Part shown: piece by piece, positions 12,687-58,569 of the stretch
How positions within the stretch are numbered: position 1 is the stretch's first letter
Layout of the letters: each line of letters starts with the position of its first letter
NCBI GenBank assembly: GCA_963752285.1
Contig: CAVVXN010000002.1
Span: 455,116 to 519,115 of the forward strand
Direction: 5' to 3'
Length of the DNA stretch: 64,000 bases
Origin: an uncultured Planctomycetota bacterium
GTDB lineage: Bacteria; Planctomycetota; PLA2; JAEUHO01
The notes under the pieces: model-generated
What the model was told of the DNA's origin: nothing
Seen by the model: the letters and a program-made list of their open reading frames with translations, nothing else
Databases searched by the model: none
Translations under genes and position numbers: made by a program

Positions 12687-14066
12687 ATGGCCTTCTTGCG
12701 CAATGACGGCCTGTGGCGCTGGGCCATCGTCGCCGTCGCCTTCGGCGTGGTGGGGTGCGCCGTCGCGCTGAACGCCCCGCGCCCCACGATGGTTCCGGCG
12801 AACGTGTACCGCGCGCCTGCGCCCCCGCTCCCCGCCGGTCGGGCCGTTTTGGGCCCCCGCCTTCCGCACGAGAAGCACGCGGACCTCGGCCTGGGCTGTA
12901 CCGACTGCCACGGGGTGGACGAGAAGACCGGCGAGCCCACGTACCCCAAGCCCGAGGTCTGCCTCGACTGCCACCAGGACATTCAGGACGAGGCGAAGAC
13001 GCCCCCCGAGAAGCGCGTCGAGAACCTGTTCTTCGACCCGCAGGGCCTGCCGCGGTGGAAGCGCTCGATCGTGGGCTACCCGGCGGACGTCCGTTTCTCG
13101 CACAAGACCCACGCCACGGCCAACCTCGAGTGCGCCGAGTGCCACGGCAAGATGAAGGGCACGGAGCGGGTCCAGCACAAGGTCCTCCAGAAGAGCCAGT
13201 GCCTGGCCTGCCACCAGGAGCGGGACGTCTCGCTCCAGTGCGCCATCTGCCACCGCGCGACCCGCGCCGACGTGCCCCCGCCGAGCCACCAGCCCCAGAC
13301 CGACTGGGAGGTGCTGCACGGGAAGACGGTTCTCGCGGCCGAGGCCCAGGGGACGAGTTCCTCCTGCCAGTACTGCCACGCCACGTCCTACTGCAACGAG
13401 TGCCACCAGGCCCGCAAGCCGTCGTCCCACGGCTTCGACTGGGAGCGACGTCACGGCCAGCTCGTCTGGCAGGCGGGGAGCCCCGACGCCGCGAGCTGCA
13501 CCTTCTGTCATCGCGACGCCGCGTTCTGTGACGGCTGCCACCAGAACCGGAAGCCCAGCTCCCACGACCACCTCTGGGAGAAGAGACACGGCGTGCTGGC
13601 CCGCGCCGGCGACATGAGCGGCATGGCGCGGTGCACGTTCTGCCACGACAAGCCTTCCTTCTGCGAGGACTGCCACAAGGAGAACCCGCCGCGCGACCAC
13701 ACCGACATCTTCCGGACGCGGACGCACGGCATGATGGCCTCCCTCGACCGCACGCGATGCATGGTCTGCCACCAGACCGACTTCTGCGTGCGCTGCCACG
13801 AGGACACCGCACCGCGCTCCCACCGCGGGCTCTGGGCCCACCTGCGGGACACGCACTGCATGCAGTGCCACTTCCCGATCCAGCAGGAGCCCGAGTGCGC
13901 GGTGTGCCACAAGCAGAACCCCACCCACGACACCGCGCCGGACCAGCCGCCGAGCCACACGCCCGGCCTCAACTGCCGTGCGTGTCACACGCCCGTGGGC
14001 GTGGGGGGGGCGCCGCCGTTGCGGCACGTTGACAACGGGACCCCCTGCCAGTTCTGCCACCACTAA
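12687..14066 (+). CDS. 17-haem c-type cytochrome, probable lipoprotein
   Basis: In-frame ATG at 12687 (RBS GAGGGGGGG) within ORF 11799..14066. The N-terminal helix ends in VVGC, a possible lipobox. I count 17 CXXCH motifs. Several form pairs of CxxCH-x4-5-CxxCH followed by a (K/P/A)P-x-(S/D)H tail (KPSSH, PPRDH, APRSH). Confidence 0.9.
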   Translation: MAFLRNDGLWRWAIVAVAFGVVGCAVALNAPRPTMVPANVYRAPAPPLPAGRAVLGPRLPHEKHADLGLGCTDCHGVDEKTGEPTYPKPEVCLDCHQDIQDEAKTPPEKRVENLFFDPQGLPRWKRSIVGYPADVRFSHKTHATANLECAECHGKMKGTERVQHKVLQKSQCLACHQERDVSLQCAICHRATRADVPPPSHQPQTDWEVLHGKTVLAAEAQGTSSSCQYCHATSYCNECHQARKPSSHGFDWERRHGQLVWQAGSPDAASCTFCHRDAAFCDGCHQNRKPSSHDHLWEKRHGVLARAGDMSGMARCTFCHDKPSFCEDCHKENPPRDHTDIFRTRTHGMMASLDRTRCMVCHQTDFCVRCHEDTAPRSHRGLWAHLRDTHCMQCHFPIQQEPECAVCHKQNPTHDTAPDQPPSHTPGLNCRACHTPVGVGGAPPLRHVDNGTPCQFCHH

Positions 14067-14067
14067 C

Positions 14068-14171
14068 GCCGGCGCGCTGAGGGCCCCGTTCGCGGCCCTT
14101 CCTCCTCCTTGCGTGCATTCGCACGCGGCGTCGTCGTCATGACCACTCCTTGGGGCCCTCAGCGCGCCGGC
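14068..14171. repeat. 104-bp element bounded by a perfect 20-bp inverted repeat with an inner hairpin
   Basis: GCCGGCGCGCTGAGGGCCCC (14068-14087) is the exact reverse complement of 14152-14171. The 64-nt interior contains GCGTGC-attc-GCACGC (14111-14126). The element starts 2 nt after the cytochrome stop codon. Confidence 0.8.
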
Positions 14172-14190
14172 TGCGTGCGGGCGCGGCGCG

Positions 14191-14570
14191 GGGGGCTCGC
14201 GGGCCCGCCTTCGGCGGGGCCGCATCGCGGGCTTGGTGCGGGGGGCTCGCGGGCCCGCCTTCGGCGGGGCCGCATCGCGGGCTTGGTGCGGGGGGCTTGC
14301 GGGCCCGCCTTTGGCGGGGCCGCATCGCGGGCTGTGGTGCGGGGGGCTCGCGGGCCCGCCTTTGGCGGGGCCGCATCGCGGGTGTGGTGCGGGGGGCTCG
14401 CGGGCCCGCCTTCGGCGGGGCCGCATCGCGGGGTGGGGTGGGGGGCTTGCGGGCCCGCCTTGGGCGGGGCCGCATCGCGGGGGTGGTGCGGGGGGATTGC
14501 GGGCCCGCCTTTGGCGGGGCCGCATCGCGGGGGTGGGGTGGGGGGGGCTTGCGGGACCGTTTTGGGCGCT
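14191..14570. repeat. Tandem array of 7 copies plus 1 degenerate copy of a ~50-bp GC-rich hairpin repeat
   Basis: The unit is GGGGGCTCGCGGGCCCGCCTTCGGCGGGGCCGCATCGCGGGCTTGGTGCG. Units start at 14191, 14241, 14291, 14342, 14392, 14441 and 14491, with a degenerate copy at about 14543. Units 1 and 2 are identical. Each contains an 11-bp stem, GCGGGCCCGCC/GGCGGGGCCGC, with one mismatch. Confidence 0.9.
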
Positions 14571-14638
14571 CCGGGAAAGGTTTGGGTGGGGCGTCGCGTT
14601 CGGGATCATGTCGCGAACGTCGTTCGGGAGTCGGTATC

Positions 14639-16711
14639 GTGCGGCTCGCGTGGCTCGCGTGGCTCGGTGGGGTCGTCTTGGCGCTCGGGCTCTCGCTCGG
14701 GGTGGGGGTTCGGGCGGCTCGGGCGGACGACGAGGTCACCGACCAGACGCTCGAGGACCACGAGTGCCTGTCGTGCCACGGGTTTGCGAAGAACGAGGAG
14801 AAGGCGCCCTTCGTGGACGGGCGACTGTTCCTCGTCTCGGTGCACAAGGACGTCGCTTGCACCGACTGCCATGGCGACTACGAGGGCAACCATCCCCAGA
14901 AGATGGCCCCGCCCGAGTCGTGCGCCTCGTGTCACTCCGACGAGTACGACCAGGTCAAGAAGAGCGTCCACGGCGTACGGTTCCCCGGGCCCGAGGCGCC
15001 CGAGACCTCGCCCGCCTGCGGGGCCTGCCACGGGATCCACGACGTCTTCAAGCCCACGGACCGCCGGTCGCACCTGTTCCCGCTCGAGGTCCCGTTCACC
15101 TGCGGGCGCTGCCACGCGAACGAGAAGGACGGCACGCCGACGCCCGCCTCCGAGCGGCCCACGGTCGATCAGCTCCTCTCGACGCTCTACGCCGACGACA
15201 CGCACGGCGCGGCGCTCCTCAAGGCCGGGCTGGTCACGGCGCCGACGTGTGTCACCTGCCACGGCAAGCACGACATCCGGCACCCGGAGGACCCGGCCGC
15301 GTCGGTCAACCGGATGAACGTGTCGAAGACGTGCGGCCAGTGCCACGTCGGGATCTACGAGCACTACGTCGAGAGCATCCACGGCACCACGCCCCGGGGC
15401 CATCCCGAGAACAACGCGAACAAGCGGGAGCCCGCCACCTGCACGGACTGCCACACGCCGCACGGGATCGAGCGTGTGGGGCTCCACTTCAAGCTGAAGA
15501 TCATCCAGACATGCTCGCGCTGCCACGGCGAGCGCGGCCGGACGTACAAGGGCACGTACCACGGTCACATCTCGGAGATCGGGCTGGGCGGCGTCGCGGC
15601 GTGCAGCGACTGCCACACCGCGCACGACATCCTGCCGTCCAGCGACCCGCGTTCCTCCGTGAACCCCGCCCACCGGACCGCGACGTGCGCGAAGTGCCAC
15701 GAGGGCGCGACGCCCCGGTTCGCGAGCTACCTGGTGCACGCGAACCCGGACGACCCGAAGCGCTTCCCCATCCTCTATTACGCGCGCACCATCATGCGCG
15801 ACCTGATCCTGGGCACCTGGGCCCTGTGGGGTCTCCACACGCTCCTCTGGCTGTTCCGCGCGTGGAAGGACCGGAAGAGGATTCGGGCGCACATCGAACC
15901 GGTGAGCGGGCGGTGGTACCGGCGCTGGCCCTGGAGCTACCGCGCGATCCACCTCACGCTGATCTTCTCGTTCCTGCTCCTCGCCATGACCGGCATCCCG
16001 CTCCGCTTCAGCGAGGCGCCCTGGGCGCGGACCGTGTTCGACTTCCTGGGAGGGGCTGCGAACTGCCGGCTTCTCCACCGCATTGGCGCGGCCTTGACCT
16101 TCGCGTACGCCCTGGCCTTCGTCGTGATGATCGCCGTGCGCCTGGCCCGGGGCGAGCGTGGCATCTTCCGCGGGCCCTCGTCCCTCCTCCCGCGCGTGAA
16201 GGACCTCCACGACATCCGGGCGAACCTCAAGTGGTTCGTGAAGGGCGGGCACCCTCCGGCCTTCGACCGCTGGACCTACTACGAGAAGTTCGACTTCCTC
16301 GCCGAGGTCTGGGGGGTGATGTTCATCGGGATCACGGGCCTGGTCATGTGGTTCCCGATCTTCTTCACCGACTTCCTTCCCGGCTGGGGCATCAACCTCG
16401 CCAACATCTTCCACTCGTACGAGGCGCTGCTCGCGACGACGTTCATCTTCACGGTGCACTTCTTCAACGCGAACCTGCGGCCAGGGAAGTTCCCCGTGGA
16501 CCCGATGTTCCTGCACGGCCGCATCTCCGAGGAAGAGCTGCGCCACGAGCGGCCGGCCGAGTACGAGCGCATGCGCGCCGAGGGCCGCCTCGAGAGCGAG
16601 GCCCTGCCGCCGCCCAACGAGCGCGTGACCGAGCGCGCCCACATCATGGGCATCCTGCTCATGTCGATCGGTCTCGTGCTCGTCCTCCTCATGGCCAGCA
16701 CGCTTCTCTGA
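14639..16711 (+). CDS. Fusion of an 11-haem c-type cytochrome domain and a membrane b-type cytochrome domain (CbcL-like quinol oxidoreductase candidate)
   Basis: In-frame GTG at 14639 (GGGAG about 9 nt upstream) within ORF 14150..16711. There are 11 CXXCH motifs in the first ~380 aa. About 5 TM helices with conserved His follow (WGLHTLLW, AIHLTLIF, LLHRIGAAL, FHSYEALL..TVHFF). Confidence 0.85.
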   Translation: MRLAWLAWLGGVVLALGLSLGVGVRAARADDEVTDQTLEDHECLSCHGFAKNEEKAPFVDGRLFLVSVHKDVACTDCHGDYEGNHPQKMAPPESCASCHSDEYDQVKKSVHGVRFPGPEAPETSPACGACHGIHDVFKPTDRRSHLFPLEVPFTCGRCHANEKDGTPTPASERPTVDQLLSTLYADDTHGAALLKAGLVTAPTCVTCHGKHDIRHPEDPAASVNRMNVSKTCGQCHVGIYEHYVESIHGTTPRGHPENNANKREPATCTDCHTPHGIERVGLHFKLKIIQTCSRCHGERGRTYKGTYHGHISEIGLGGVAACSDCHTAHDILPSSDPRSSVNPAHRTATCAKCHEGATPRFASYLVHANPDDPKRFPILYYARTIMRDLILGTWALWGLHTLLWLFRAWKDRKRIRAHIEPVSGRWYRRWPWSYRAIHLTLIFSFLLLAMTGIPLRFSEAPWARTVFDFLGGAANCRLLHRIGAALTFAYALAFVVMIAVRLARGERGIFRGPSSLLPRVKDLHDIRANLKWFVKGGHPPAFDRWTYYEKFDFLAEVWGVMFIGITGLVMWFPIFFTDFLPGWGINLANIFHSYEALLATTFIFTVHFFNANLRPGKFPVDPMFLHGRISEEELRHERPAEYERMRAEGRLESEALPPPNERVTERAHIMGILLMSIGLVLVLLMASTLL

Positions 16712-16878
16712 CCCGTCGCCCGGACCGGGCGCTCGGGACGGGGGACCCGGGCACCGCGGCCCGGCCGGCCTCCGCCCGAGCGCAGGCGCCCGTCCACCGT
16801 GGGGCGTGAACCGCGCGCTCTCGAATCGCCGGGAAGCGCACGTTTGCGGGTCGGCGATCGGCCATTAGGATCCTCCGA

Positions 16879-17904
16879 ATGAAGACCGTGCCCCCGCCCG
16901 CCGGCCCGGCCGACGGTGATGGTCCGCGCCGCTGGGCGGTCGTCGTGGGCACGATCGGGGGCCTCTTCCTCGGCGTCGTGTTCTTCGTCGCCGTCTGGGG
17001 GGTCCCGCCGATCCGCCTCGGCAAGGTGGGCGACCCGGAGGCGTTCGCGCAGGTCCTCCAGCTCGAGCGCCTCGTGGTGGTGCTGAGCCCCTTCGAGGCG
17101 GCGGTGTTCGCGATCGGAGTGGAGGCCGCCGTGGCCTTCTTCCTGCTGCTCGGGATCCGCCGGCTCTGGGTCCTGGTGCCCGTGACGTTGGTGGTGGTCT
17201 TCTTCATGTACCTGAACGGCCGAGCGTATCTCGCGTGGATCCAGGGCGAGAAGCTCCCCGAGATGTCGTGCGGCTGTTTCGGGAACCTCGTAGACCGCTC
17301 GCCCGCGGAGGCGTTCTGGCAGGACGCGGCCCTCCTGCTCCCCGCGCTGCTCATGGCGTACGTGGGCCGTCCCAGAGGGGAGGGCGCCTCCGCGCCTCCC
17401 GTTCGGACGGCGCTGGCGGGCCTCCTCACCATGGGCACCGTGTTCTTCGCGGCGGCCGCGCCCGAGATGAGGCTCGACGACCTTTCGACGCGGCTCCGGC
17501 CCGGAACGGACCTTCGCACCGTCTGCGCCGGCACGGGTCCGGAGCACCTGTGCCTGGCGGGCGAAGCCCTCGCGCCCGGGCTTACGGAGGGCGAACACGT
17601 CGTCGTGCTCGCCGACCTCACCGACCCGGACTTCCAGGCGGAGGTGGCGCACCGGAGCCAGGAGCTCCTCGACTTCGCCGCGCGCGAGGACGCGCCCGAC
17701 ATCCTCGTTCTGTTCAGCGGGCCCAAGGAGCAGGCGACCGCGTTCCAGTTCCAGGCCCTCGCGCCCCCGTTCCAGTACCAGGACGTGCCGGCGGCGCTGC
17801 TGAGACCCCTGCACCGTCGTCTGCCGCGTACGTTCGTGGTTCGAGACGGCGTCGTGCGCGCGACCTACTCTGGACTGCCCCCGATGGCCGATCTGGACCT
17901 GTGA
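16879..17904 (+). CDS. MauE/DoxX-like membrane protein (CGCFG motif) with a C-terminal soluble domain
   Basis: Track ORF with 4-5 TM helices and the MauE-type motif EMSCGCFGNL. The C-terminal ~150 aa may have a thioredoxin-like fold but carry no CXXC. Confidence 0.75.
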   Translation: MKTVPPPAGPADGDGPRRWAVVVGTIGGLFLGVVFFVAVWGVPPIRLGKVGDPEAFAQVLQLERLVVVLSPFEAAVFAIGVEAAVAFFLLLGIRRLWVLVPVTLVVVFFMYLNGRAYLAWIQGEKLPEMSCGCFGNLVDRSPAEAFWQDAALLLPALLMAYVGRPRGEGASAPPVRTALAGLLTMGTVFFAAAAPEMRLDDLSTRLRPGTDLRTVCAGTGPEHLCLAGEALAPGLTEGEHVVVLADLTDPDFQAEVAHRSQELLDFAAREDAPDILVLFSGPKEQATAFQFQALAPPFQYQDVPAALLRPLHRRLPRTFVVRDGVVRATYSGLPPMADLDL

Positions 17905-17927
17905 ACCCGGTCCCCCGAGGCTCCTCC

Positions 17928-18755
17928 ATGCGCCGCATCCACCCCCCGAGCCGCTGGGCGGCGATCCTCGTTCTCGCCACGCTGGCGGGGGTCCCCTCCG
18001 CGCGTGCCGGCGACGACACCGGGGACGCGCATCCGACCCTCCGCGACTTCCAGGCGACGGGGCAGTACGTCCTCTGGGCCAAGGACGAGGCGGTGGACCA
18101 GGCGACGATCTACTACTCGGAGCCCTCGGCGGCGTATTTGATCGTCACGGAGGCCTTCCCCGACGCGGTGCTGATCCTGCCGCGCACCCGTTGTGTCGAG
18201 TCGGTCAAGTCGGACGAGATGATCGAGCGGGACGACGGCGGCATCGACGTGAAGAAGGAGGCGATGCCCTGCGGTCTCGGCCGGTTCCGCCTGGAGGGAG
18301 CCGACGTGGTGTTCGACGTCGGCGACATCCCCGCCCGGCTGAAGCCGAAGCCGCCCCTGCTCGGCGGGCATCGGCGCGACGCGCTCCTCGAGCACTCACC
18401 GGAGTACGCGCGGGGCGCGAAGGCCTACAAGCCCGACATGGACGTCATCGAGCAGATGAAGAAGGCCAACAAGAAGGCCCGCATCCAGATCTTCTTCGGC
18501 TCGTGGTGTTCGTTCTGTGCCCGCTTCGTTCCCCACATCCTGCGCGTGGAGGAGGAGCTCCAGGGCACCGACCTTTCGTTCGAGTACTTCGGCCTGGAGC
18601 CGCCGCCGGCGGCGTGGGTCGGCGAGACGGCGACGAAGATGGGAATCAAGAGACTCCCCACGGGCATCATCTTCGTGGACGACAAGGAGATCGGCCGGAT
18701 CATCGGGACCGAGTGGATCCGCCCCGAGGTCGCGCTGGCGCGCTTCCTCCGCTGA
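17928..18755 (+). CDS. Secreted thioredoxin-family protein (WCSFC active site) with an unknown N-terminal domain
   Basis: In-frame ATG at 17928 of ORF 17235..18755. Signal peptide is AAILVLATLAGVPSARA. The C-terminus reads IQIFFGSWCSFCARFVPHI...LPTGIIFVDDKEIGRIIG. Confidence 0.8.
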   Translation: MRRIHPPSRWAAILVLATLAGVPSARAGDDTGDAHPTLRDFQATGQYVLWAKDEAVDQATIYYSEPSAAYLIVTEAFPDAVLILPRTRCVESVKSDEMIERDDGGIDVKKEAMPCGLGRFRLEGADVVFDVGDIPARLKPKPPLLGGHRRDALLEHSPEYARGAKAYKPDMDVIEQMKKANKKARIQIFFGSWCSFCARFVPHILRVEEELQGTDLSFEYFGLEPPPAAWVGETATKMGIKRLPTGIIFVDDKEIGRIIGTEWIRPEVALARFLR

Positions 18756-18832
18756 CGCGGACCCGCGCCGCGACCCGGGCGTCGCCGCATCCCGGCCCAC
18801 GCCGGATCCGCCCGCGCGGCGCACCTACGAGA

Positions 18833-18863
18833 GCGCCCCGCGCGGCGGGGCCGCGCGGGGCGC
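18833..18863. terminator. Perfect 14-bp GC hairpin between convergent genes (bidirectional terminator candidate)
   Basis: GCGCCCCGCGCGGC-ggg-GCCGCGCGGGGCGC lies between the stops at 18755 (+) and 18883 (-). Confidence 0.45.
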
Positions 18864-18882
18864 GAGGGGGAGACTCCGAACG

Positions 18883-21411
18883 CTAGGGCAGCGCGAAGCT
18901 CGCGCCCGACAGCGCGCCGAGCGTGTGGGTGAACACGTCCGAGACGAAGCCCGGGTTGTGGAAGGACTTGCTGCGGTCCGCCTCGAGCATGGAGAAGTTC
19001 CAGCCCGCCTTCGCGAGCACCACCTCGGGGTTCCCGGCGAAGAGGCCGTTCAGGTAGAGCGAGCCCATCGGGAGATCGAGCGGGTCGAGGATCGTCGTGC
19101 CGCCGTGGAGCTGCACGTGGTAGATCCAGGAGCCGCCGATCTGGATGTTCATGCCCTGCCGCCCGTGCGACTCGGCGAACTCCAACCCCCCGACGACCGA
19201 CGTGGAGTCGATCGTGGCGGCGAGCGGGGTCGCCTCGTCGAGCGTCGAGCCGGTGAGGGCGATGCGGTATCCCGCACCGACCAGCGACTGGATCTCGTCC
19301 GCGAGCTTGGACTCGATGGTGAGCTTCAGGTCCTCGATGCTGGTCTCGAACTGCTTCTCGAGCGTGCCGCCGTCGAAGGCGCCGTGGCAGTTCGAGCAGA
19401 TCGAGACGTCGGCGGTGAAGCCGTGGTTGGCGCCCGCGCCGCTCAGGCTGTAGTCCGCCGGGGGCGGGCTCATCTGGACGTGGCAGGTGACGCAGGTGTC
19501 CTTCAGGAAGCCGTGGGGGCCGCGGCTCGGCGTCGAGACGAAGAACATGTTCTGGCCGAAGAGCACGTCCGTCTGCGGGCCCTGGTGGGGCGCCCGGTCG
19601 GGCGAGTCGAGGCCCGTCACGTCGTTCCTCAGACCGCGCCGGCCGTTGTGGCACTCCATGCACATCGCGCCCTTGCCGACGTTCGTCGCGCTGAACCCCG
19701 ACTCGAGGTTCATCGCGTTGTCCTCGACGCGCATGTGCGCGTCGTTCGCGTCGCCGGAGACCGTTCCGACGTTGTGCGGGTCGTGGCAGACCACGCACGT
19801 GATCGGGTGGACCGTATCGGCCGTCGGCGCGGCATCGACCACCCCGTCCGGCAGCCAGTCGAGGAAGCCCTGTGCGGAGTGGCACTTCGCGCAGCTCTTG
19901 TTGGTGCCCTCAGCGATGGCGACCTCGTAGTTGCCGTGCGCGCTGTTCTCCCACTGCTGGAAGCGGCCGTGCCGCGGCGGTTCGCCGTGGCAGGAGCCGC
20001 ACACGTCCGACGCCATGGAAACGCGGTACACGTCGTTGCCCATGTGGCTGCTGCCCTGGCCGTTCGGGCCGTGGCAGTTCTCACACTGGATGTTGCCCTT
20101 CTGGGCGACCGTGGGCCACGTCGAGAGCACCTTGGCCCAGTTCCCCATGTCCATCGTCATGTGGCCACCGGGGAACATGCCGGCGTAGAAGTCGGCGTAC
20201 TGCGGCGTGTCGTCCAGCCCGTCGTTCGTCGCGTCGAGGTCGAAGCCCACGGTGTGGCACGCGAAGCAGCTGCTGCTGTAGTGGTCGCTCGTGTTCAGGT
20301 TGTCCTTGAAGATCGAGGCGTGCCCGGTCTTGGCCCAGTCCGTGAATTTCTCGGGGAAGATGCCGGAGTGACAGGACATCGTGCAGGACATCGTCGGGTT
20401 GCCGGCGGCGTCCATGCCGTCGATCCCGCCGACCCACTTGCCGGCGTAGACGTCCAGGTTGACCGTCGTGCTCGTCGCGAGGTCCGTCACCGCGAGGGTG
20501 TACTTCCCCGTGACGTCGGGCACGAACCAGGGGTACCGGGTCGTGGCGTCGGAGAGCGTCGCCGTGGAGGTCCCCGGCGCCGCCTGGATCGTCCAGTCGT
20601 ACGACGCCTGGGTCTTCCCGCCGAGCAGGACCGGCACGCCGACCGGCACGTTCTGGAGGCCCGTCGTCCAGGCGACGAAGGGCAGCTTCGCGGCGACCGC
20701 GGCCGTCGCCTTGTACGTGCCGCTCGTCGTCGTCACGGTGCACTGGAGGTCCACCGCCGCGCCGAGGTCGGCGACCTCGGGGTTGAGCGGGACCACCCGC
20801 CAGCGCTCGAGCTGCTCGATGCTGCCCACGAGGGCGGTCTTGTAGGCCGCGATCGCGGCCAGCGTCACGTCCGTCGTCGCCGCGGTCGGCGCCGTGATCG
20901 TCGCCGTGGCGCCCGTGCCCGTCTGCGACCAGGAGTAGCCGCTGACCGTCGATCCGTCGTAGATCGTCGGCGTGGCCGTCAGCGCGAACGACGCCCCGGG
21001 AGCGGGGCCCGTCGGCGCGCCCGTGATCTTCACGGTCACGTGCGCCGTCGGCATGAGGTCGAGGTTGCACGTGGTCGTGCCGGCTGCGAGGACGCTCACG
21101 CTGTCGGCGCCCGCCGTGAACCCGGTCGGCGCGCAGGCGAGTCCGTAGCTGCCCACCGGCAGCGTCGCGGTGTAGTGACCGGTCGCGTCGGTCACGGGGT
21201 TCACACCCGCCACGGCGGGCGTGAGGGTAACGGGCGCCCCTGCGAGGGGAGCGCCGCTCATGGCGTTGGTCACCTGACCGGTCAGCGTGCCGGTGCTCGC
21301 GCCGGGGAGGCCGGGCGCGCCGTTGCTGCCGGAACCGCAGGCGGCCAACGACAGGCAGAGGAAGGTGGCGAGCAGCCACCCGCCTCGATGGAAGCGAGTC
21401 GCAGGCGTCAT
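18883..21411 (-). CDS. 842-aa multihaem lipoprotein cytochrome (8 CXXCH + 1 CX3CH) with N-terminal carboxypeptidase-regulatory/Ig-like domains
   Basis: In-frame ATG at 21411 (RBS AGGAG) of ORF 18883..21588, with lipobox SLAAC. GTLTGQVTNAMSGAPLAGAPVTLTP...TDATGHYTATLPVGSY matches a CarboxypepD_reg-like domain. Haem motifs are CTMSCH, CFACH, CENCH, CGSCH, CAKCH, CVVCH, CMECH, CVTCH and CSNCH. Confidence 0.85.
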   Translation of the reverse strand: MTPATRFHRGGWLLATFLCLSLAACGSGSNGAPGLPGASTGTLTGQVTNAMSGAPLAGAPVTLTPAVAGVNPVTDATGHYTATLPVGSYGLACAPTGFTAGADSVSVLAAGTTTCNLDLMPTAHVTVKITGAPTGPAPGASFALTATPTIYDGSTVSGYSWSQTGTGATATITAPTAATTDVTLAAIAAYKTALVGSIEQLERWRVVPLNPEVADLGAAVDLQCTVTTTSGTYKATAAVAAKLPFVAWTTGLQNVPVGVPVLLGGKTQASYDWTIQAAPGTSTATLSDATTRYPWFVPDVTGKYTLAVTDLATSTTVNLDVYAGKWVGGIDGMDAAGNPTMSCTMSCHSGIFPEKFTDWAKTGHASIFKDNLNTSDHYSSSCFACHTVGFDLDATNDGLDDTPQYADFYAGMFPGGHMTMDMGNWAKVLSTWPTVAQKGNIQCENCHGPNGQGSSHMGNDVYRVSMASDVCGSCHGEPPRHGRFQQWENSAHGNYEVAIAEGTNKSCAKCHSAQGFLDWLPDGVVDAAPTADTVHPITCVVCHDPHNVGTVSGDANDAHMRVEDNAMNLESGFSATNVGKGAMCMECHNGRRGLRNDVTGLDSPDRAPHQGPQTDVLFGQNMFFVSTPSRGPHGFLKDTCVTCHVQMSPPPADYSLSGAGANHGFTADVSICSNCHGAFDGGTLEKQFETSIEDLKLTIESKLADEIQSLVGAGYRIALTGSTLDEATPLAATIDSTSVVGGLEFAESHGRQGMNIQIGGSWIYHVQLHGGTTILDPLDLPMGSLYLNGLFAGNPEVVLAKAGWNFSMLEADRSKSFHNPGFVSDVFTHTLGALSGASFALP

Positions 21412-21695
21412 GCTGATCTCCTGGTACCGATGTGCAGGTCGGGGCGCGGCGGGAACGGGAATTCCGCCCCCGACCCGCGTGATCCGCCGACGGAGCCTGG
21501 CGGCGACGACGTGGCGGCAGAGCGCGTCGAGACTGCGGGCGCGGTCGTCCTGGTGTCTCGGGTGCGGAGCAAGCGCCTTGTCGTTCATCCGACGGGCCTC
21601 GTCTCAGCGAATCGTCCCTCTTGGGGCGGAGTGTATTCGTGCCGTGGCGTCTTCCCAATCTTTGCGACGGTGTTCCGTGCGGAATGCGTTGTTGA

Positions 21696-21744
21696 TTGCA
21701 TAGTATGCAAACGAATCGTGCAGATTGAATGCAACGTTGTTGCA
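21696..21744. promoter_or_regulatory. Two TTGCA/TGCAA palindromes in a locally AT-richer island (operator candidate)
   Basis: TTGCATA-g-TATGCAA is at 21696-21710 and TGCAAC-gtt-GTTGCA is at 21730-21744. Both lie in the 455-bp spacer between the two large cytochrome genes. Confidence 0.3.
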
Positions 21745-21866
21745 GCGAGGACCCCGGCGCCATGCCGCGCGCGCGCCCCGGAAATGCGAGCGGCCCGCGC
21801 GAGCGGAGGCTCGCGCGGGCCGCGAATGGGGGAAGGGCGCCCGGGGGCGCCCTCCGCTGGTCGTCG

Positions 21867-28049: not shown

Positions 28050-28330
28050 GCCGCGGCGGCCTTGGTGCCGCCGAGAGACCGGTGCGCGGACGGGTCCCGG
28101 TCGCTTCGGCGTGGCGGATCCCGTCGGCCGTTCGGTGTCGTCCACGGCGCTCCCCTGCCCAGGCCCCTCGGAGGGACGAGCGAAGATACGCCCGCGCCGC
28201 TTCGAGGGCACGCGTGGCCTCTTTGGACCGCGCGGCACGCGCCCACGGACCCACCTCGGGGACCCCGCGCCCCCCGGGCGCCCGCGCCTCGGGGTTGACG
28301 GGGTCCCGGCCCTCGCCTTCACTTGGCGCC

Positions 28331-29764
28331 ATGGCGTCCGGGGCGCGGGTGGTCCGAGTATTCGTCTCCTCCACCTCGGAGGACCTGAAGGACCACCGGG
28401 CGGTGGCCCGGAACGTCATCATGGACCTCGGCTGGCAGCCGAAGATGATGGAGCACTTCGGCTCGAGCCCCCACGCGACGGTGGTCGCGTGCCGGGAGGA
28501 GCTCGGACGCTGCGACCTGATGCTCCTGGTGGTCGCCTGGCGCCGGGGGTGGGTGCCGACCCCGCAGCAGGGCGGCGACGGGACCGAGTCGATCACCGCG
28601 ATGGAGCTCCGGCACGCCCGGGAGCGCGGCATCCCCGTTCTGCCGCTCTTCGCCAGCGAGACCTGGCCCGGGAACCTCTGGGAGGACGACGCGGACGCGC
28701 GCGTCTGGATGAAGTCGTTCCGTCAGAACCTGAACCAGCCGGCCGTGTTCTTCGACTACGAGCCGCTGACCGCCCAGGAGACGGAACGGCTGCCGGCCTT
28801 CCGGGCGAAGGTGAAGGAGGCGCTCCTCGCCGAGAAGGAGCGGCTGCTCGCCCGGGTGGGCGGCGGGCAGGGTGCGCCCGAGCTCGACTACTTCGAGAGC
28901 GCGCGGGACGGCCTCTGCGACGGCACGGACGTCCCCTTCGTGGGGCCCGGGGTCTATGGGGACGGGCCGCTCGGGCGCGAGGCCCTGATGGACGCGCTCG
29001 CCGGAGAGGACGTCGGGGAGGAGGTCCAGTCGATCGCCACGGCGGCCGAGTACCGCGAGCGGTACCTGGGGTCGCGAGAGCACCTCCTCCGCCACCTGGC
29101 GCGCCTCCTCTCGGAGCAGACCGCTCGCACCGAGCCGCTGCCGATCCACGACCTGCTCGTCGGCCTGGAGCGTCTGCCGCTCGTCGTCTCGACGTGCTCG
29201 GACGAGGTGCTCGAGAACCGTCTCCGCGAGGCCGGGCGGCCGTTCGTGCTCGTGAGCCACGTGGTGCGCTCGTACAGCGGCGAGCACGACGGCAAGGTCG
29301 TGGTCGTCCCGCCGGAGGGCGAGCCACGGTTCTTGCCGGCCGACGAGCTCACGCTCGACGAGGCGTGCACGGTGGTCTACAAGCCCGTCGGCTCGCCGTA
29401 TCTGAACGACCGCCTCGACGAGGACGGCGAGATCGACACGGTGATGATCACGGAGACCGACCACGTCGCGTTCCTGCAGCGGCTCGACAACGAACGCACG
29501 GGGGTCCCGAAGCGATTCGCCATCAAGTTCGCGCGGCGGCCCCTCCTCTTCCTGGGCTACGCGCTCGACGTCTGGCAATACCGCCTCATGATGCACGTCT
29601 TCCAGTCCGCACACCGGCAGGCGCGCCGGTCCACGACGATCGCCGTCCGGCGTCCCGGCTCCGTGATCGAGCAGCTCGCGTGGAAGCGCCTGAACGCGGA
29701 CCTGGTGCCGATGGACCCGAACGAGTTCGCCCGCGCCGTCCTCGGCGGCGCGGCGGCCCGATGA
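28331..29764 (+). CDS. DUF4062-like N-terminal domain fused to a SIR2_2-like domain (477 aa)
   Basis: In-frame ATG at 28331 of ORF 28082..29764. VRVFVSSTSEDLKDHRAVARNVIMDLGW...CDLMLLVVAWRRGW matches the DUF4062 pattern. FVGPGV, VVSTCSDEVLENRL, VYKPVGS, MITETDHVAFL and LLFLGYALDVW match the SIR2_2 pattern. Confidence 0.75.
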   Translation: MASGARVVRVFVSSTSEDLKDHRAVARNVIMDLGWQPKMMEHFGSSPHATVVACREELGRCDLMLLVVAWRRGWVPTPQQGGDGTESITAMELRHARERGIPVLPLFASETWPGNLWEDDADARVWMKSFRQNLNQPAVFFDYEPLTAQETERLPAFRAKVKEALLAEKERLLARVGGGQGAPELDYFESARDGLCDGTDVPFVGPGVYGDGPLGREALMDALAGEDVGEEVQSIATAAEYRERYLGSREHLLRHLARLLSEQTARTEPLPIHDLLVGLERLPLVVSTCSDEVLENRLREAGRPFVLVSHVVRSYSGEHDGKVVVVPPEGEPRFLPADELTLDEACTVVYKPVGSPYLNDRLDEDGEIDTVMITETDHVAFLQRLDNERTGVPKRFAIKFARRPLLFLGYALDVWQYRLMMHVFQSAHRQARRSTTIAVRRPGSVIEQLAWKRLNADLVPMDPNEFARAVLGGAAAR

Positions 29765-32700
29765 CCGACGACGCGATGCGAGCGTCCGACGGCCCCGTGG
29801 ACCGCGCGTCCGCGAGCCGCGGTGTCGAGGAGGGTGACGACGGCCGGGCCCCCAGGATCGCGCCGCGCGAGGCGCAACCGTACGTGGGCCTCCGTCCGTT
29901 CGAGCGGGAGGAGAGCCACCTCTTCTTCGGCCGCGAGCGGGACGCCCAGATCCTCGAGGACAAGATCCTCTCCGCGCGTCTCACCGTGCTCTACGCGCAG
30001 TCCGGCCTCGGGAAGTCGTCCCTGCTCCGCGCGCTCGTGGTGCCGCGGCTCGAGGAGAACGAAGCCCTCGTCGTCGAGTTCGACGCGTGGGCGCAGTCGG
30101 ATCCGCTCGCGGCGTTGAAGGAGACGCTCGCCGGCGAGGCGGAGGGCCTCGGCGTCCCCGACGCCGGCCTCGGCGCGCCGACGCTGCTCGAGCTCGCGCG
30201 ATTGATCCAGACCGCCACCGACCGGAGCCTCGTCCTCGTCCTCGACCAGTTCGAGGAGCTCCTCGTCCACCACGGTCGCTCGATCGAGCCGCTGCGCCGC
30301 GAGCTGGCCGCGCTCGTGAGCTCGCGGGCGGTGGACGTCCACGTCCTGCTCTCGCTGCGGGAGGAGTTCCTCGGCGCGCTCCAGCCGTTCCGCCAGGCGA
30401 TGCTCGGCCTCTTCCAGTCCACGTACCGGCTGGAGGGCCTCGCCCCGGACGGGCTCCGCGACGCGATCGTCGAGCCGGCCCGGCTCTCGGGCGGCGCGTG
30501 CGACCCCGGGCTCGTCGAGGCGCTCGCGAAGGACCTCCGTTCCGAGGCGCAGGACGAGACCGGCGGCGAGCCGACGGGCGCGTCCGTCGAGCTCCCGATG
30601 CTGCAGCTCGTGTGCGCCGAGCTCTGGCAGGCCGCGACCTCGGTCGGGAGCCGCCACCTGACCGAGGACCTGTACCGCGCGCGCGGCGGCGCCGAGCGGA
30701 TCCTCGCCGACTACGTGCGGAGCGTGATGCCGCGTCGCGCTTCGCAGCGCCGCGTCGTGGCCCGGCTCCTGCGGCTCCTCGCGCCGCCGAGCGGCCTCAA
30801 GATGGCGTACACCGAGGAAGACCTCGCCTCGACCACGGGCATCGGCCTCTCGCGCGTCCGCGAGGTGCTCGACCGTCTGGCGGCCGCGCGCATCCTGCGG
30901 ACGCGGGAGGACCGCGCGGGCGTCCGATACGAGCTCCAACACGACGCGTTCATCGGCGTGGTCGGGCCCTGGCGCGACGACGTCCTCCGGCGCGCGCACC
31001 GGCGAAGGGTCGCGACGTGGATCCTCGCCACGGCCGCGATCGTCGCTGCGGGGACTTGGGGCTTCTGGACCTTTCGTCTGGGGCAGGAGCAGAAGGAGAA
31101 CCGGCTCCTCCTCGACCGCCAGCGCGCGACGGCGGAGCGGGAGCAGGCGCGCGCGGAGCAGGCCGCCGTGGACCGCTGGCTCGCGGGCGACGCCCTCGAC
31201 GAGCTCGCGCGCGGCGACGACGCGGCGAGCGAGGGAAAGCGCGGGAGCCGGCTCGACATGCTCGCCGGCTACCTCCTCTGGCCGCGCGAGGGCTCGGCGC
31301 GGATCGACGACCTCGCCGCGGTGCTCCAGCGGCACGAGGACCTGATTCCCGAGCGCTACGGCGTCGCGACGGCGGGCATCGACGAGCTCGACCTCCCGCC
31401 CCGCGAGTGGCCCCTCTCGCTCGCGGTCGCGCCCGACCGGAAGGTGGACGCTCCGCTCTTCGGGCTCGAGTGGCGTCGGCTCGCGCGGCTCGTCAACCAG
31501 CAGCGGGGCGTCCCCACGCCGCTCCGGATCCGCGTCGTTCACGACGCGGACCTGTCCGGCGAGGACGTCCGCCTGGAGGCGGCGGGCGCCGACCCCGTGA
31601 CCTTCGCGGTCGCTCGCCAGGAGGGACGCGCGCTCCTCGACGTGCCCGAGGGCGGGCTCGGCGAGCCCGCGCGGGGGTTCTACGAGCGATTCGGCGCCGG
31701 GTGGCCGACGCTCTCGACGAGCTCCACCTCGCGCATCGTCCCGCGGTGGACCCTCCCCGTGTGGCACGTCACCGGCTACGCCGTCGAGAGCGGGAGCGCG
31801 ATCACCGCCTACCGCGTGCTCAAGGAGGCCCTCGACCGCGCGGATCCGCTGCTCTCGCCGGCGGCGGTCGAGCACCTCCTCCGGCGCGCGGCCGCCGTCG
31901 CGCCGCGCACGGTGGCCGAGGTCCGCGCGGCGCGCGGCGATCGTCTCCCGCGCGACCTGGCGACGTGGGTGCGCCGCGGCCACGCGCTCGATCGCCCGGC
32001 CGAGCTCTTCGACGTGCTCGCCGACCGCGTGGCCGGCTCGTCCGAGGAGATCGCCGACGCGTGGGCGGAGGACGGCGTCCTCGACACGGCGAGCGGCGCG
32101 CCCGATCTCCACGGGCCGTGGCGCGGACCGCCGCCCGCCGACCTCGGCGAGGAACCGCCGGCGTACCGCGACACGAGCGCTTGGCTGCCCGTCGTCGGTC
32201 AACCGGTGCGCGTCGAGGCGGGCCCGGACCTCGAACCGTCGTGGTTCGACGACGATCGGCTGCGACCGGATCTCGTGGAGGCCATCGAGGCCGCGCGAGA
32301 CGAGTCGCACCGTCGCTACGGCATCGAGCTGCCGGGGATCCGGTTCCGCTCCGAGGACGCGCCGGGCCACGTGGGCGCGGGGTCGTTCCGCGTCGAGGTG
32401 TTCGACGAGGACGCGACGAGCCCCGAGGCCCCGGCCGTGACGCCGGAGGCCGGCGCCGCGCTCGCCCGGCTCGGGCGCGCGCTCGACGTGCGAGCCGCGT
32501 GCTGGCGCGTGCACTGGCTGACGGCGGAGGTCGTCCACGACCTCGAGGCCGAGACGCACCCGGCCGTGGCGAAGTGGCTCGACGCGCGCTACGCGCTGAC
32601 CGACCTGAAGGTGCTGCTCCGCGGCGTGCTCTCCCCCGACCCCCGGGAGGTCGCCGCGCTCCGCGCGGCCGAGGCGGGCGACGGACGGCTCCCCGACCCG

Positions 32701-34497
32701 GTGGACCCCGGGTCCACGGTCCGCTACGCGCCGTGGCTCCTCGACGCGCTCGTCTTCTACACGGTGGCCGAGAAGCCGCTCGACGGCGAGGCGCTGGTGC
32801 GGGACCTGCGGCACCTCGCGCGCCTGCGCGTCGCCGGCGAGCGTTCCGCCGCCGAGGCGGTCTCGGTCCCGCCCTCCGTGCCGCCCGAGGTCCGCGCGGG
32901 GGTGGACGCGCTGCTCCGGGGCCGGCCCGAGGACGCGGCCGCGAGGTTCCTGTCGGCGCTCCAGGCCGATCGGGCGGTCGCCATGCGCGCGTTCGCGACG
33001 GCCTGGGTGGACCGTCTCGGCTCCGTGTGGCTCGACGACGAGACGCGCAGCCTGACCAGCCTGGACCTCGCGCGGCTCGATCGGCGGGCGCGCCTCGACC
33101 TGGAGGACCTGCTCCGCCGGCCCGACGTCCAGGCGTCGCGGCTCCTCCGTACGCGGCTCGGCATCCTGCTGCTCGCCGCGAGCGCGGACGACGCCGAGCC
33201 GGAGAAGGCGACGCTCCCGTCGCTGCTCGCCGCGTCGGACCTCGCGGACGAGCTCCCGGCCTCCGAGGCGGCGTGGCTCGGCCAGCGGGGCCTCCACGCG
33301 TACGATCCCGCGGAGCCGGACGCCGCCGCGCTCGAGCAGGCGGCGCGTCTGCTCGTCTCGGCGGCCCGGCGTCTCGACGACGACGGCGCGTACCGCATCG
33401 TGACCGACCTCCTGGATGTGTGGCGAGGGCCGAAGGGCGGCCGGTGGTGCCGACGGCTGCTCGAGCGTCTCGCGCAGGCGAAGCCCGACAGCGTGAAGCC
33501 GAGCCTCCCGCTGGAGCTCGCCTTCCACCTCGCGTACCTGCAGTCCCCGGACGACCTGCACGAGGCGCGCGCGCTGCTCGAGACCGAGAGGAAGAAGCTC
33601 GACGCGCCCGTCTTCACCGACGACGACCGCGCGTACCGGCGCGCCGTGCTGGCGTTCGTGGACGCGAAGAGCCTCACGAACCTCGCCGCCGCCGGCGAGG
33701 ACCGGCGCTGGCCCGAGGCCGAGGCGGCGTGGCGGTCGCTCCTCGACGTGAACCAGGGGAGCTTCGCGGAGGAGGCGCACGGCGAGCTCGCCGAGGCGCT
33801 CATCTCGCTCGACCGGGTCGACGACGCCCGGAAGGTGCTCGACGAGGGGCAGGCCCGGTGGCCGAAGAACACGCGCTTCGAGATCCTGCGGCTCCTGGCC
33901 GCTCTCCGCGTGGGAGACACGAACGCCGTCGCGGCCGTCTCGCTCCAGGCGGTCGCGCGGCTGGGCCCGGAGGTGGACGACGCCTGGTACGTCGCGGCCC
34001 TGGGCCAGGTGCTCACCGGTCGGGGACCGGGCGACGGCGCGGTCCGCACGTACTACGAGAAGAAGCACTGGGCGGAAACGTTCGTCTCTCTCCTCGCCCG
34101 GGCGATGCGGAGGGAGCCCCTCGCCGCGGAGGCCGACGCCCGGCTCCGCGCGCGATGGAACGATCTGGAGGCCGAACGCGCGGGATGGCCCGAGCGTCTC
34201 GCGCAGGGCGACCCGAACGTCTGGTCGGATCTCCTGCTCGGCTTCGCGCTGGGGGAGGTGCCGCGCGAGGACGTCTTCCCAGCGCTGGCCGACGACGAGT
34301 CCTTCCGGGCGTCCCCGTACGTCCACCTCGGGGCCGTCCGGCGGGCGTTTTTGTGCGAGGCGCACTTCGCCGACGCGCTCGCGCTCCTGGCGAAGGGCGA
34401 CGCCGCCGCGGCGAAGCAGGCCCTGGAACGGGTGGTCCAGAGCGGGCAGCGGACGTACCTCGACTACACGATCGCGAAGTACCTGCTCTCCCGGTGA
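29761..34497 (+). CDS. 1578-aa STAND-class P-loop NTPase with a wHTH-like segment, one TM helix and a large unassigned/TPR-like C-terminal region
   Basis: ATG at 29761 overlaps the upstream stop (ATGA). PYVGLRPFEREESHLFFGRERD precedes Walker A GQSGLGKSS and Walker B LVLVLDQFEELL. The TM helix is WILATAAIVAAGTWGFWTF. The C-terminal region of ~1100 aa is helical-repeat-rich. Confidence 0.8.
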   Translation: MTDDAMRASDGPVDRASASRGVEEGDDGRAPRIAPREAQPYVGLRPFEREESHLFFGRERDAQILEDKILSARLTVLYAQSGLGKSSLLRALVVPRLEENEALVVEFDAWAQSDPLAALKETLAGEAEGLGVPDAGLGAPTLLELARLIQTATDRSLVLVLDQFEELLVHHGRSIEPLRRELAALVSSRAVDVHVLLSLREEFLGALQPFRQAMLGLFQSTYRLEGLAPDGLRDAIVEPARLSGGACDPGLVEALAKDLRSEAQDETGGEPTGASVELPMLQLVCAELWQAATSVGSRHLTEDLYRARGGAERILADYVRSVMPRRASQRRVVARLLRLLAPPSGLKMAYTEEDLASTTGIGLSRVREVLDRLAAARILRTREDRAGVRYELQHDAFIGVVGPWRDDVLRRAHRRRVATWILATAAIVAAGTWGFWTFRLGQEQKENRLLLDRQRATAEREQARAEQAAVDRWLAGDALDELARGDDAASEGKRGSRLDMLAGYLLWPREGSARIDDLAAVLQRHEDLIPERYGVATAGIDELDLPPREWPLSLAVAPDRKVDAPLFGLEWRRLARLVNQQRGVPTPLRIRVVHDADLSGEDVRLEAAGADPVTFAVARQEGRALLDVPEGGLGEPARGFYERFGAGWPTLSTSSTSRIVPRWTLPVWHVTGYAVESGSAITAYRVLKEALDRADPLLSPAAVEHLLRRAAAVAPRTVAEVRAARGDRLPRDLATWVRRGHALDRPAELFDVLADRVAGSSEEIADAWAEDGVLDTASGAPDLHGPWRGPPPADLGEEPPAYRDTSAWLPVVGQPVRVEAGPDLEPSWFDDDRLRPDLVEAIEAARDESHRRYGIELPGIRFRSEDAPGHVGAGSFRVEVFDEDATSPEAPAVTPEAGAALARLGRALDVRAACWRVHWLTAEVVHDLEAETHPAVAKWLDARYALTDLKVLLRGVLSPDPREVAALRAAEAGDGRLPDPVDPGSTVRYAPWLLDALVFYTVAEKPLDGEALVRDLRHLARLRVAGERSAAEAVSVPPSVPPEVRAGVDALLRGRPEDAAARFLSALQADRAVAMRAFATAWVDRLGSVWLDDETRSLTSLDLARLDRRARLDLEDLLRRPDVQASRLLRTRLGILLLAASADDAEPEKATLPSLLAASDLADELPASEAAWLGQRGLHAYDPAEPDAAALEQAARLLVSAARRLDDDGAYRIVTDLLDVWRGPKGGRWCRRLLERLAQAKPDSVKPSLPLELAFHLAYLQSPDDLHEARALLETERKKLDAPVFTDDDRAYRRAVLAFVDAKSLTNLAAAGEDRRWPEAEAAWRSLLDVNQGSFAEEAHGELAEALISLDRVDDARKVLDEGQARWPKNTRFEILRLLAALRVGDTNAVAAVSLQAVARLGPEVDDAWYVAALGQVLTGRGPGDGAVRTYYEKKHWAETFVSLLARAMRREPLAAEADARLRARWNDLEAERAGWPERLAQGDPNVWSDLLLGFALGEVPREDVFPALADDESFRASPYVHLGAVRRAFLCEAHFADALALLAKGDAAAAKQALERVVQSGQRTYLDYTIAKYLLSR

Positions 34498-53359: not shown

Positions 53360-53433
53360 TGGAGGCGCCGTCCGGAATCGAACCGGAGTGCGCGGATTTG
53401 CAATCCGCTGCCTAACCACTCGGCCACGGCGCC
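53360..53433 (-). tRNA. tRNA-Cys (anticodon GCA), CCA encoded
   Basis: The reverse complement reads GGCGCCGUGGCCGAGUGGUUAGGCAGCGGAUUGCAAAUCCGCGCACUCCGGUUCGAUUCCGGACGGCGCCUCCA. The acceptor stem is 7 bp. The anticodon arm is GCGGA/UUGCAAA/UCCGC. The T arm is UCCGG/UUCGAUU/CCGGA, and the discriminator is U73. Confidence 0.9.
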
Positions 53434-54080
53434 CGGGTCCGGGCTGGGGAGTTGAAACCGGGTTCGCCGGATTGGCAAGCCCGGTCCGAGGTCGGAGGTC
53501 CGCCCGCGGCTACGGGCTGCGGGCCGGCGGTGGTGCGTCCCGGGCGCCGGCCGCCGGGGGCGGGAGTCCGGGCGGAGCCCGTCGCGGCGTTGCGTCGCGG
53601 CGCTGCGGAGCCGAGGGTCCCCCGGAGCCGACGGCGTCCCGGAGTCGCGGGCGGCGCGGCGCCGGGGCCGGGACAACCGGCGGGCGCGGTCCCCGCGGGC
53701 GTGGGGCCGGCCTGGGTCACGGCGGCCCGGCGTACCGAGCGTCGGTCCCTGCGCGTCGGGCCCCCGCCTTGGCGAGGGCGCGCCGGCGCGCCTGTTTATT
53801 CGTTCGTGTGCGAATCGATTCACTTCGTGTGCGATACCCATCGCAGGATCGCACGCGCGGTACACACCTCGGCAACCCGGTAACCATCCCCCGCTTGGCG
53901 GCGGTTGCGTCGAAGTTCCAAGACGCCCGGCGCGCGATCGCATTTCGTGCGGTCCCCGACGGGGCGAGAAGAGAATTACGCGGTAGCTACCTCGAGCGCG
54001 CCGCGCGGTGCGACGTTTGCCTACAAGAGTCGGGCGGGTACCCGAAACGCAACCGCGGGCTCGCTCCAAGGAGAGGCGTC

Positions 54081-58508: not shown

Positions 58509-58537
58509 CGGCGGCCGAGACGTTTCGATCGCACGCC

Positions 58538-58569
58538 CCGGCCCCCGCGGCACCGCCCGCGGGGGCCGG
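58538..58569 (+). terminator. Perfect 13-bp GC hairpin 30 nt after the lipoprotein stop (terminator candidate)
   Basis: CCGGCCCCCGCGG-caccgc-CCGCGGGGGCCGG is followed by gcttcgtct. Confidence 0.5.

Follow-up and report, generated by a model that had tools for sequence, protein, structure and literature searches.

The intercistronic spacer and its flanking genes

The stretch of DNA analyzed here, 64,000 nucleotides from an uncultured Planctomycetota bacterium (assembly GCA_963752285.1, contig CAVVXN010000002.1, positions 455,116 to 519,115 of the forward strand; hereafter the window, to which all coordinates refer unless another locus is named), has a GC content of 66-77% and carries a tandem array of 50-nt units, each with a GC-rich hairpin, in the spacer between two co-oriented cytochrome genes. 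The array is a genuine, non-coding and lineage-restricted minisatellite of seven full units and one decayed unit. The upstream gene (12687-14066, + strand), which ends with the stop codon TAA at 14064-14066, encodes a 459-aa multihaem c-type cytochrome with 17 CXXCH motifs and Pfam Cytochrome_C7, c3 and MtrC-like domains. This protein aligns over its full length with the 458-aa product of a syntenic locus (L014); its exact product, under alternative starts, is not on record for any independent contig. The downstream gene (14639-16711, + strand) encodes a 690-aa CbcL-like protein with a signal peptide, 11 CXXCH motifs and a C-terminal cytochrome b561-type membrane domain (Pfam matches including PF01292). 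Its start at the GTG at 14639 agrees with an independent Logan contig and the NCBI/ENA record, where the same product has been called, and the N-terminus from 14639 agrees with that of the L014 orthologue. The named homologues of this CbcL-like protein are from Planctomycetota metagenome-assembled genomes (MAGs), and the closest homologue among 5.8 billion sequences, encoded in L014, is only 65% identical; the databases contain neither a second strain nor a close relative. Further upstream lie genes for an Rrf2-type regulator, another cytochrome-like protein, whose L014 counterpart bears a Cytochrome_C554 domain, and cytochrome c assembly. The order of the two cytochrome genes is conserved in L014, in keeping with the position inside a cytochrome operon that a preliminary description of the locus had given; both genes belong to a putative extracellular-electron-transfer operon.

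The spacer measures 572 bp and consists of 1 base, a 104-nt inverted repeat, 5 bases, the 383-bp array and a 79-nt leader with the ribosome-binding site, such that the array starts 111 nt past the TAA and ends 79 nt before the GTG at 14639. The inverted repeat (14068-14171, + strand), which begins 1 nt past the upstream stop codon and ends 5 nt ahead of the array, forms a long stem-loop with a perfect 20-bp stem (arms 14068-14087 and 14152-14171, 100% complementary) and a 64-nt loop; its predicted RNA fold amounts to -69.9 kcal/mol (z = -6.4). The 20-bp stem is long enough to suit RNase III, and the loop contains a small hairpin together with a CCTTCCTCCTCCTT run resembling an anti-Shine-Dalgarno sequence. 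A reading of this element as a MITE is not supported, given that the window holds no second copy and that its ends show no target-site duplication. In the leader, a Shine-Dalgarno-like GGGAG read from the sequence (14626-14630, + strand) precedes the GTG by 8 nt. The motif CGTTCGGGA occurs twice there, at 14597-14605 and 14621-14629, the second copy overlapping the GGGAG site (GGGA, 14626-14629), and CGTTCG (14597-14602) can pair with CGAACG (14614-14619) to give a small stem-loop just 5' of the ribosome-binding site. No sigma-70-like promoter was found in the spacer by a promoter consensus scan. Rfam 15 returned only sub-threshold chance matches in 13500-15200, none of them within the array, and on the whole window only a tRNA.

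Anatomy of the array

Tandem Repeats Finder, applied to the 64-kb window, detected a single array of 50-bp period at 14177-14559 (7.6 copies, 92% matches), with a score of about 600, no other array in the window reaching more than a quarter of this. A separate repeat search gave eight in-register copies, spaced by 50, 50, 51, 50, 50, 49 and 50 nt. When the window was scanned for the 25-nt core GCGGGCCCGCC-TTN-GGCGGGGCCGC, seven matches were obtained, all on the + strand, with starts at 14199, 14249, 14299, 14350, 14400, 14449 and 14499 (spacings 50, 50, 51, 50, 49 and 50 nt), against 0.00 expected in dinucleotide-preserving shuffles; elsewhere in the window the core is absent even at three mismatches. 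The seven full units of 49-51 nt occupy 14177-14526 on the + strand and are recognized by both repeat searches and by a hidden Markov model (HMM) of the unit at E values of 8e-13 to 4e-10. A full unit is built from a 22-nt G-rich linker, a 25-nt hairpin and the trinucleotide ATC. Hairpin 1, GCGGGCCCGCC-TTC-GGCGGGGCCGC, lies at 14199-14223 according to pattern search and fold, and the pattern search places hairpins 2-7 at 14249-14273, 14299-14323, 14350-14374, 14400-14424, 14449-14473 and 14499-14523, all on the + strand. The decayed eighth unit (14527-14575, + strand) gives a weak HMM match (E = 0.24) and is recognizable by pairwise alignment to unit 7; it has retained the linker, lengthened to G5-T-G4-T-G8, and its hairpin is worn to GCGGGACCG-TTTT-GGGCGCTCCGGG. 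The usual linker sequence is ATCGCGGGCTTGGTGCGGGGGGCTC or a close variant of it, and six of the eight linkers read GCGGGCTTGGTGCGGGGGG or similar. Among the six internal linkers, which measure 24-26 nt, the differences are confined to 7 alignment columns.

Seven near-identical units and one decayed unit had already been recognized in the preliminary description, together with the full identity of units 1 and 2, and both points are confirmed, the 50-mers at 14190-14239 and 14240-14289 being identical. The bounds of 14191-14570 given there have to be revised to 14177-14559, or to 14575 with the whole of the decayed unit. Edit distance between units grows with their separation. Because neighbours are most alike and two units are identical, the array can be taken to have grown as its units were duplicated locally in tandem, by slippage or unequal recombination, which also bears out the recent expansion proposed earlier. 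The anatomy and the origin of the array as described here are regarded as highly probable.

The non-coding character of the array, likewise proposed earlier, was upheld. Its 383 nt comprise 206 G, 114 C, 54 T and 9 A (GC skew +0.29), and all six reading frames are open across it. The presence of several open reading frames (ORFs) that read through the repeats had been noted before; these carry no weight, since open frames are expected from such a composition (P = 0.63-0.73 per frame from composition alone). As a result of the 50-nt period the units cycle through the three frames, and the GC content at codon positions 1/2/3 is flat at 0.83-0.84 in every frame, versus 0.63/0.47/0.95 in the downstream and 0.66/0.51/0.95 in the upstream gene. 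The downstream start at 14639 is followed by a signal peptide that the orthologue shares.

Hairpin structure and constraint on the stem

The hairpin consists of 4 bp, a G·G mismatch, 6 bp and a UUY loop, so that the stem, earlier described as one of 11 bp, has in fact 10 Watson-Crick pairs around a central G·G mismatch, which is conserved at stem position 5 in every full unit. The fold, ((((.((((((...)))))).)))), has predicted energies of -21.7 (+ strand) and -18.9 kcal/mol (- strand), and the spacer as a whole is more structured than shuffled sequences on both strands (z = -3.6 and -5.1 on the + and - strand, respectively). Directly after each hairpin follows ATCGCGGG, not a U-tract; along these lines, a terminator consensus scan gave no intrinsic terminator in 13500-15200, and no U-tract terminator is present in the spacer.

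Variation among the units of the window array is unevenly distributed. None of the 22 stem columns varies, compared to one of the three loop columns and 7 of the 29 columns of the linker alignment, and the chance that random variation would spare all 22 stem columns is P ~0.01. This invariance is compatible with selection on the stem, and also with young copies and linker G-runs that are prone to slippage.

Distribution and a second array

DNA similarity between the window and L014 ends at the stop codon of the upstream cytochrome gene (14064) and resumes at 14723, 85 nt inside the CbcL-like gene. The corresponding spacer of L014 measures 335 bp (L014 9666-10000), shows no significant similarity to the spacer or the unit of the window (local alignment, p = 0.24-0.36) and is no more structured than shuffles (z = -0.25). 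Tandem repeats are absent from the orthologous loci L014, L016 and L017, and an HMM search with the unit (nhmmer) over the window and all loci retrieved for comparison returned only the array itself and hairpin-only chance matches. The idea of a hairpin series as a conserved feature of this intercistronic site was dropped, as the L014 spacer is unrelated and not unusually structured. In L017 (7194-9922), the genes for the multihaem cytochrome and the CbcL-like protein are separated by three others, which encode a small cytochrome, a 4Fe-4S protein and NrfD. The window and L014 lack these three genes at this position and have instead mutually non-homologous spacers of 572 and 335 bp; the window spacer may be a deletion scar where L017 has its three genes.

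Beyond these loci, the hairpin was searched as an exact pattern with a free loop. In 185,579 GTDB species genomes and in the JGI metagenomes, two collections that do not include the source genome, 12 and 14 single-copy matches were obtained, respectively, in unrelated phyla and with flanks unlike the unit, and no array. Viral contigs gave no match to the exact pattern, and a blastn search of the whole spacer against plasmids gave none either.

Because gene callers sometimes call ORFs through such arrays, the array was also translated on both strands and searched against a protein collection. One match was found, P0121, a spurious ORF of 294 aa on a 508,178-bp NCBI/ENA contig, which cycles through the hairpin-encoded peptides SRARLRRGR, LAGPPLAGP and RGPAFGGAAS. 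Degenerate back-translation of P0121, which is known here from the protein alone, gives nine hairpins at an exact 49-nt period, with 22-25 of the 25 core positions compatible with the window hairpin. For the linker ends (ATCGCG... and ...GGGGGGCTC), 13-15 of 15 positions can be reconciled with the window array, where the background stands at 8.0; the linker middles differ from those of the window array. As P0121 reads through a second array of the same hairpin, the hairpin represents a small family rather than a one-off. Neither a search with P0121 as the query nor a profile search over 1.84 billion representatives gave anything but P0121 itself, and no further array was found. One P0121 unit alters both partners of pair 6 (C-G to G-C/A), a second alters only one, and in the remaining units one partner of this pair is hidden at a wobble position; the changes at pair 6 may be taken as weak evidence of covariation. 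The tail of P0121 back-translates to another long inverted repeat, with up to 29 nt compatible and arms about 190 nt apart. Both arrays are hence situated beside a long inverted repeat, the sequences of the two inverted repeats being different.

Comparison with known repeat families

With the REP clusters and BIMEs of gamma-proteobacteria the array shares the build from imperfect, GC-rich palindromes (20-50 nt) whose stem mismatch is conserved, and an extragenic location, often between co-transcribed genes. Here the palindrome is the 25-nt core with its 10 pairs and one mismatch, within the 20-40 bp of a short, GC-rich and imperfect REP. REP clusters reach up to 12 units and can be units repeated in tandem with flanking DNA (PMC3733652). 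For those at malE-malF of E. coli and for REP325, between yjdM and yjdN, protection of the upstream mRNA and attenuation of read-through were shown. On the other hand, the sequence tag of REPs is missing (GTAG, CTAC, CGTC and GACG are all absent from 14177-14559), and the units stand head to tail, with seven cores of one type on the + strand only and one type of linker, in place of the alternating Y/Z orientation of BIMEs. The unit furthermore includes a 25-nt G-rich linker, dispersed single copies are lacking in the 64 kb, and a Pfam scan of 26 window ORFs showed no RAYT/Y1_Tnp-type domain. Public data reveal just two arrays, the one locus in the window and the array deduced from P0121 on another contig. 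The sense strand is G-rich, so that Rho dependence is doubtful. The REP/BIME resemblance asserted in the preliminary description therefore holds for the stem-loop build, and not for membership, with the tag, the alternating orientation and other copies in the window missing and no RAYT-like gene among the 26 ORFs scanned.

The MIRU-VNTR loci of Mycobacterium tuberculosis are direct tandem repeats of 40-100 bp, found in operon spacers and transcribed in polycistronic mRNA (PMC3184786). The window array, with its 50-nt period and 7.6 copies in an intergenic operon spacer, corresponds to this description, and further common traits are the high-GC genome, the internal GC-rich inverted repeats and the absence from the homologous site of a relative (PMC3184786). 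MIRUs carry small ORFs that overlap the flanking stop and start codons (PMC3184786), whereas the window array is separated from these codons by gaps of 111 and 79 nt and has a flat codon-position GC content. The sequences are unrelated, and MIRUs are dispersed to about 40 loci.

Protective intercistronic stem-loops, such as those of E. coli men and pap, which serve programmed differential decay (PMC5927463), are likewise stable hairpins placed after a stop codon or before the downstream cistron. They are usually single, unique and conserved, in contrast to the window hairpin, which is seven-fold amplified, young and absent from the nearest relative. CRISPR arrays, too, consist of direct repeats of about 25 nt that are partly palindromic and spaced at regular intervals. 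Here, however, the 25-nt intervals are near-identical and differ by point changes only, where CRISPR has unique spacers; no cas domains were found among the scanned ORFs, and the array lies inside an operon, so that its earlier separation from CRISPR is sound. Taken together, build and probable action place the array nearest to REP clusters and BIMEs, and size, direct-repeat form and operon position nearest to MIRU-VNTR. We class it as a lineage-private intergenic stem-loop tandem repeat and not as a REP, BIME, MIRU or CRISPR. The element is thus of a familiar and expected kind, and the conceptual gain is incremental.

Proposed function

The reading that we put forward, tentatively and at slightly less than even odds, is that of a REP-like stem-loop minisatellite which would act, by analogy with the systems above, as an intercistronic mRNA barrier or attenuator. 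Transcribed together with the operon, the array and the adjacent 104-nt stem-loop would present a row of very stable mRNA stem-loops between the two cistrons. Such stem-loops would hold up exonucleases that work in the 3'->5' direction and/or cause pausing or attenuation of RNA polymerase. The transcript of the upstream cytochrome would thereby be protected and expression of the CbcL-like gene uncoupled from the upstream cistron, with the copy number setting the strength of the effect. The reading has strong precedents. Intercistronic 3' structures are known to block PNPase and RNase II and to stabilise the upstream cistron (PMC5927463). The 12-hairpin REP325 cluster stabilises the upstream mRNA of yjdM-yjdN, attenuates read-through and yields a ladder of hairpin-ended transcripts (bioRxiv 10.64898/2026.03.23.713779). 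In favour of this reading it may be added that the hairpin has been retained in the P0121 array in spite of the differing linker middles. The RNA-barrier function taken by itself is possible, although we consider it somewhat doubtful.

Several points weigh against a barrier or attenuator. Because the L014 spacer is unrelated and no more structured than shuffles, the hairpin array is not a conserved requirement of the operon. The invariance of the stem could stem from the youth of the copies and slippage of the linker G-runs instead of selection, and another P0121 unit carries an uncompensated stem change, altering one partner only. Co-transcription is inferred only from gene order and orientation. 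Rho usually loads on C-rich, G-poor RNA, and loading on the sense RNA is unlikely since this strand is G-rich (G 206, C 114); any attenuation would accordingly have to come from the hairpins themselves. Along the same lines, the mechanism of REP325, which is partly Rho-dependent (bioRxiv 10.64898/2026.03.23.713779), may not be transferable to the window array.

If the barrier reading is true, the array sets the ratio of the periplasmic 17-haem cytochrome to the membrane CbcL-like quinol-oxidising module, and slippage could shift this ratio fast, with promoters and coding sequence untouched. REP-like intercistronic hairpin clusters would then extend to a lineage and a sequence type without the usual REP hallmarks. 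A bolder and unlikely version envisages an untagged, RAYT-independent stem-loop family that builds head-to-tail arrays in multihaem cytochrome operons, its units switching between the hairpin and a G-quadruplex/R-loop-prone form of the G-rich sense strand as a copy-number-tunable attenuator; this would amount to an independent invention of BIME-like regulation by a different amplification mechanism.

Alternative explanations

The array may instead be a neutral or selfish minisatellite, in which a slippage-prone hairpin expanded in a dispensable spacer, maybe a scar at the place of the three additional genes of relatives, and has no role in expression. We judge this rather unlikely; nevertheless it is very much alive, the nearest relative having no counterpart of the array. 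The spacers of the two syntenic loci are non-homologous, the identical neighbouring units point to very recent growth, the three genes present at this position in L017 are missing from the window, and no other array was found in the 185,579 species genomes or the JGI metagenomes, all of which favours this reading. Less easily rationalized is that variation has spared 22 stem positions (P ~0.01), and that hairpin and linker ends were kept in the P0121 array despite its other linker middles and its other period. Furthermore, judging from PMC5927463, it is unlikely that an mRNA bearing several hairpins in a row, each of about -22 kcal/mol, would be unaffected by them.

It is improbable, in our view, that the array belongs to a mobile REP-like family acting on DNA, in which a transposase or a DNA-binding protein would recognize the hairpin (BIMEs are bound by gyrase, IHF or HU) and the array would be a by-product of amplification. 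The occurrence of at least two arrays on different contigs, each adjoining a long inverted repeat, and the stem mismatch conserved as in REPs would suit this proposal. The missing GTAG or CGTC tag does not, nor does the lack of single copies or dimers in the 64-kb window and of a Y1-transposase domain among the 26 ORFs scanned, and exhaustive translated searches have yielded only one other array.

A G-quadruplex or R-loop switch, where the G-rich non-template strand would fold as DNA or RNA and block transcription or translation according to copy number, appears quite improbable. The array does contain the top G4Hunter scores of the window, with the maximum of 2.8 in the 64 kb at 14516-14559, and has the GC skew of +0.29 given above. 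Canonical motifs, defined as four G-tracts of at least three G with loops of 1-7 nt, were found by regular expression in the linker before hairpin 6 (GGGGTGGGGTGGGGGGCTTGCGGG, 14430-14453, + strand, G4Hunter 2.52) and in the linker of the decayed unit (GGGGGTGGGGTGGGGGGGGCTTGCGGG, 14529-14555, + strand, with the highest G4Hunter score of the window). ViennaRNA with G-quadruplexes enabled predicts quadruplexes in or around the two G-richest linkers, including the region 14430-14453. These are, however, two of eight linkers. The remaining six would need loops of 8-12 nt and G-tracts borne by the stem, as in a typical unit two of the four G-tracts are locked inside the hairpin stem, which is predicted to win. 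The preliminary description had regarded the junctions in general as compatible with G-quadruplexes; this applies to the G-run junction GGGGTGGGGTGGGGGG, which occurs only at 14430 and, lengthened, at 14529, and not to the other six. Since the G-tracts of those units reside partly in the stem, the quadruplex idea is confined to the array's 3' end, and the unit itself falls outside it. The G-richest linkers are at the same time the 3'-most and most diverged ones, and they look like the outcome of G-run slippage drift, not like a conserved core.

An artefact of long-read metagenome assembly is very improbable. Contig names of related records suggest long-read assemblies, and read errors could lie behind the lengths of G-homopolymers and the spacings of 49 and 51 nt seen for two units. 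The independent short-read Logan contig, 100% identical over 14593-21791, stops 34 nt short of the array and never crosses it, a break of the type that repeat-rich or G-rich stretches tend to cause. Against an artefact speak the ordered, neighbour-related way in which the units differ, the identity of the flank in an independent assembly, and the second array of the family on another contig. Moreover, a single long read readily covers an array of 383 bp. In practice, short-read assemblies break at arrays of this type, as happened here, and spurious gene calls arise from them, as in P0121, which matters for the annotation of high-GC MAGs.

Finally, the array has a negligible probability of being coding, either as an extension of the CbcL-like protein at its N-terminus or as a repeat protein of its own. 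The ORF 14150-16711 does run through the array in frame with the CbcL-like gene, and P0121 was itself a product of gene calling across the sister array. Against a coding function, the 50-nt period reads each unit in a different frame, GC content is flat over the codon positions, six open frames are what composition predicts, signal peptide and orthologue N-terminus begin at 14639, and P0121 has no homologue among the 1.84 billion representatives.

Other features of the window

Tandem repeats of 27 and 15 bp were detected by Tandem Repeats Finder at 45644-45761 and 46750-46820, both inside an ORF of 416 aa (45607-46857, - strand) that has no Pfam match and whose product carries REPAAGRER four times towards the C-terminus and PSEGR-like repeats near the N-terminus; these repeats are coding and bear no relation to the 50-bp array. 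A stretch of lower GC content (0.66-0.69 at 54-58 kb, versus 0.72-0.77 around it) adjoins a tRNA-Cys gene (53360-53433, - strand) and contains an ORF of 1489 aa (54084-58553, - strand) without a Pfam match, and the region 53360-58553 may be an island integrated at the tRNA. At 28111-34497, an ORF of 2128 aa with an nSTAND1 NTPase domain adjoins ORFs for a trypsin-like peptidase (34517-36865, - strand) and a TPR Ser/Thr kinase (38187-40220, - strand).

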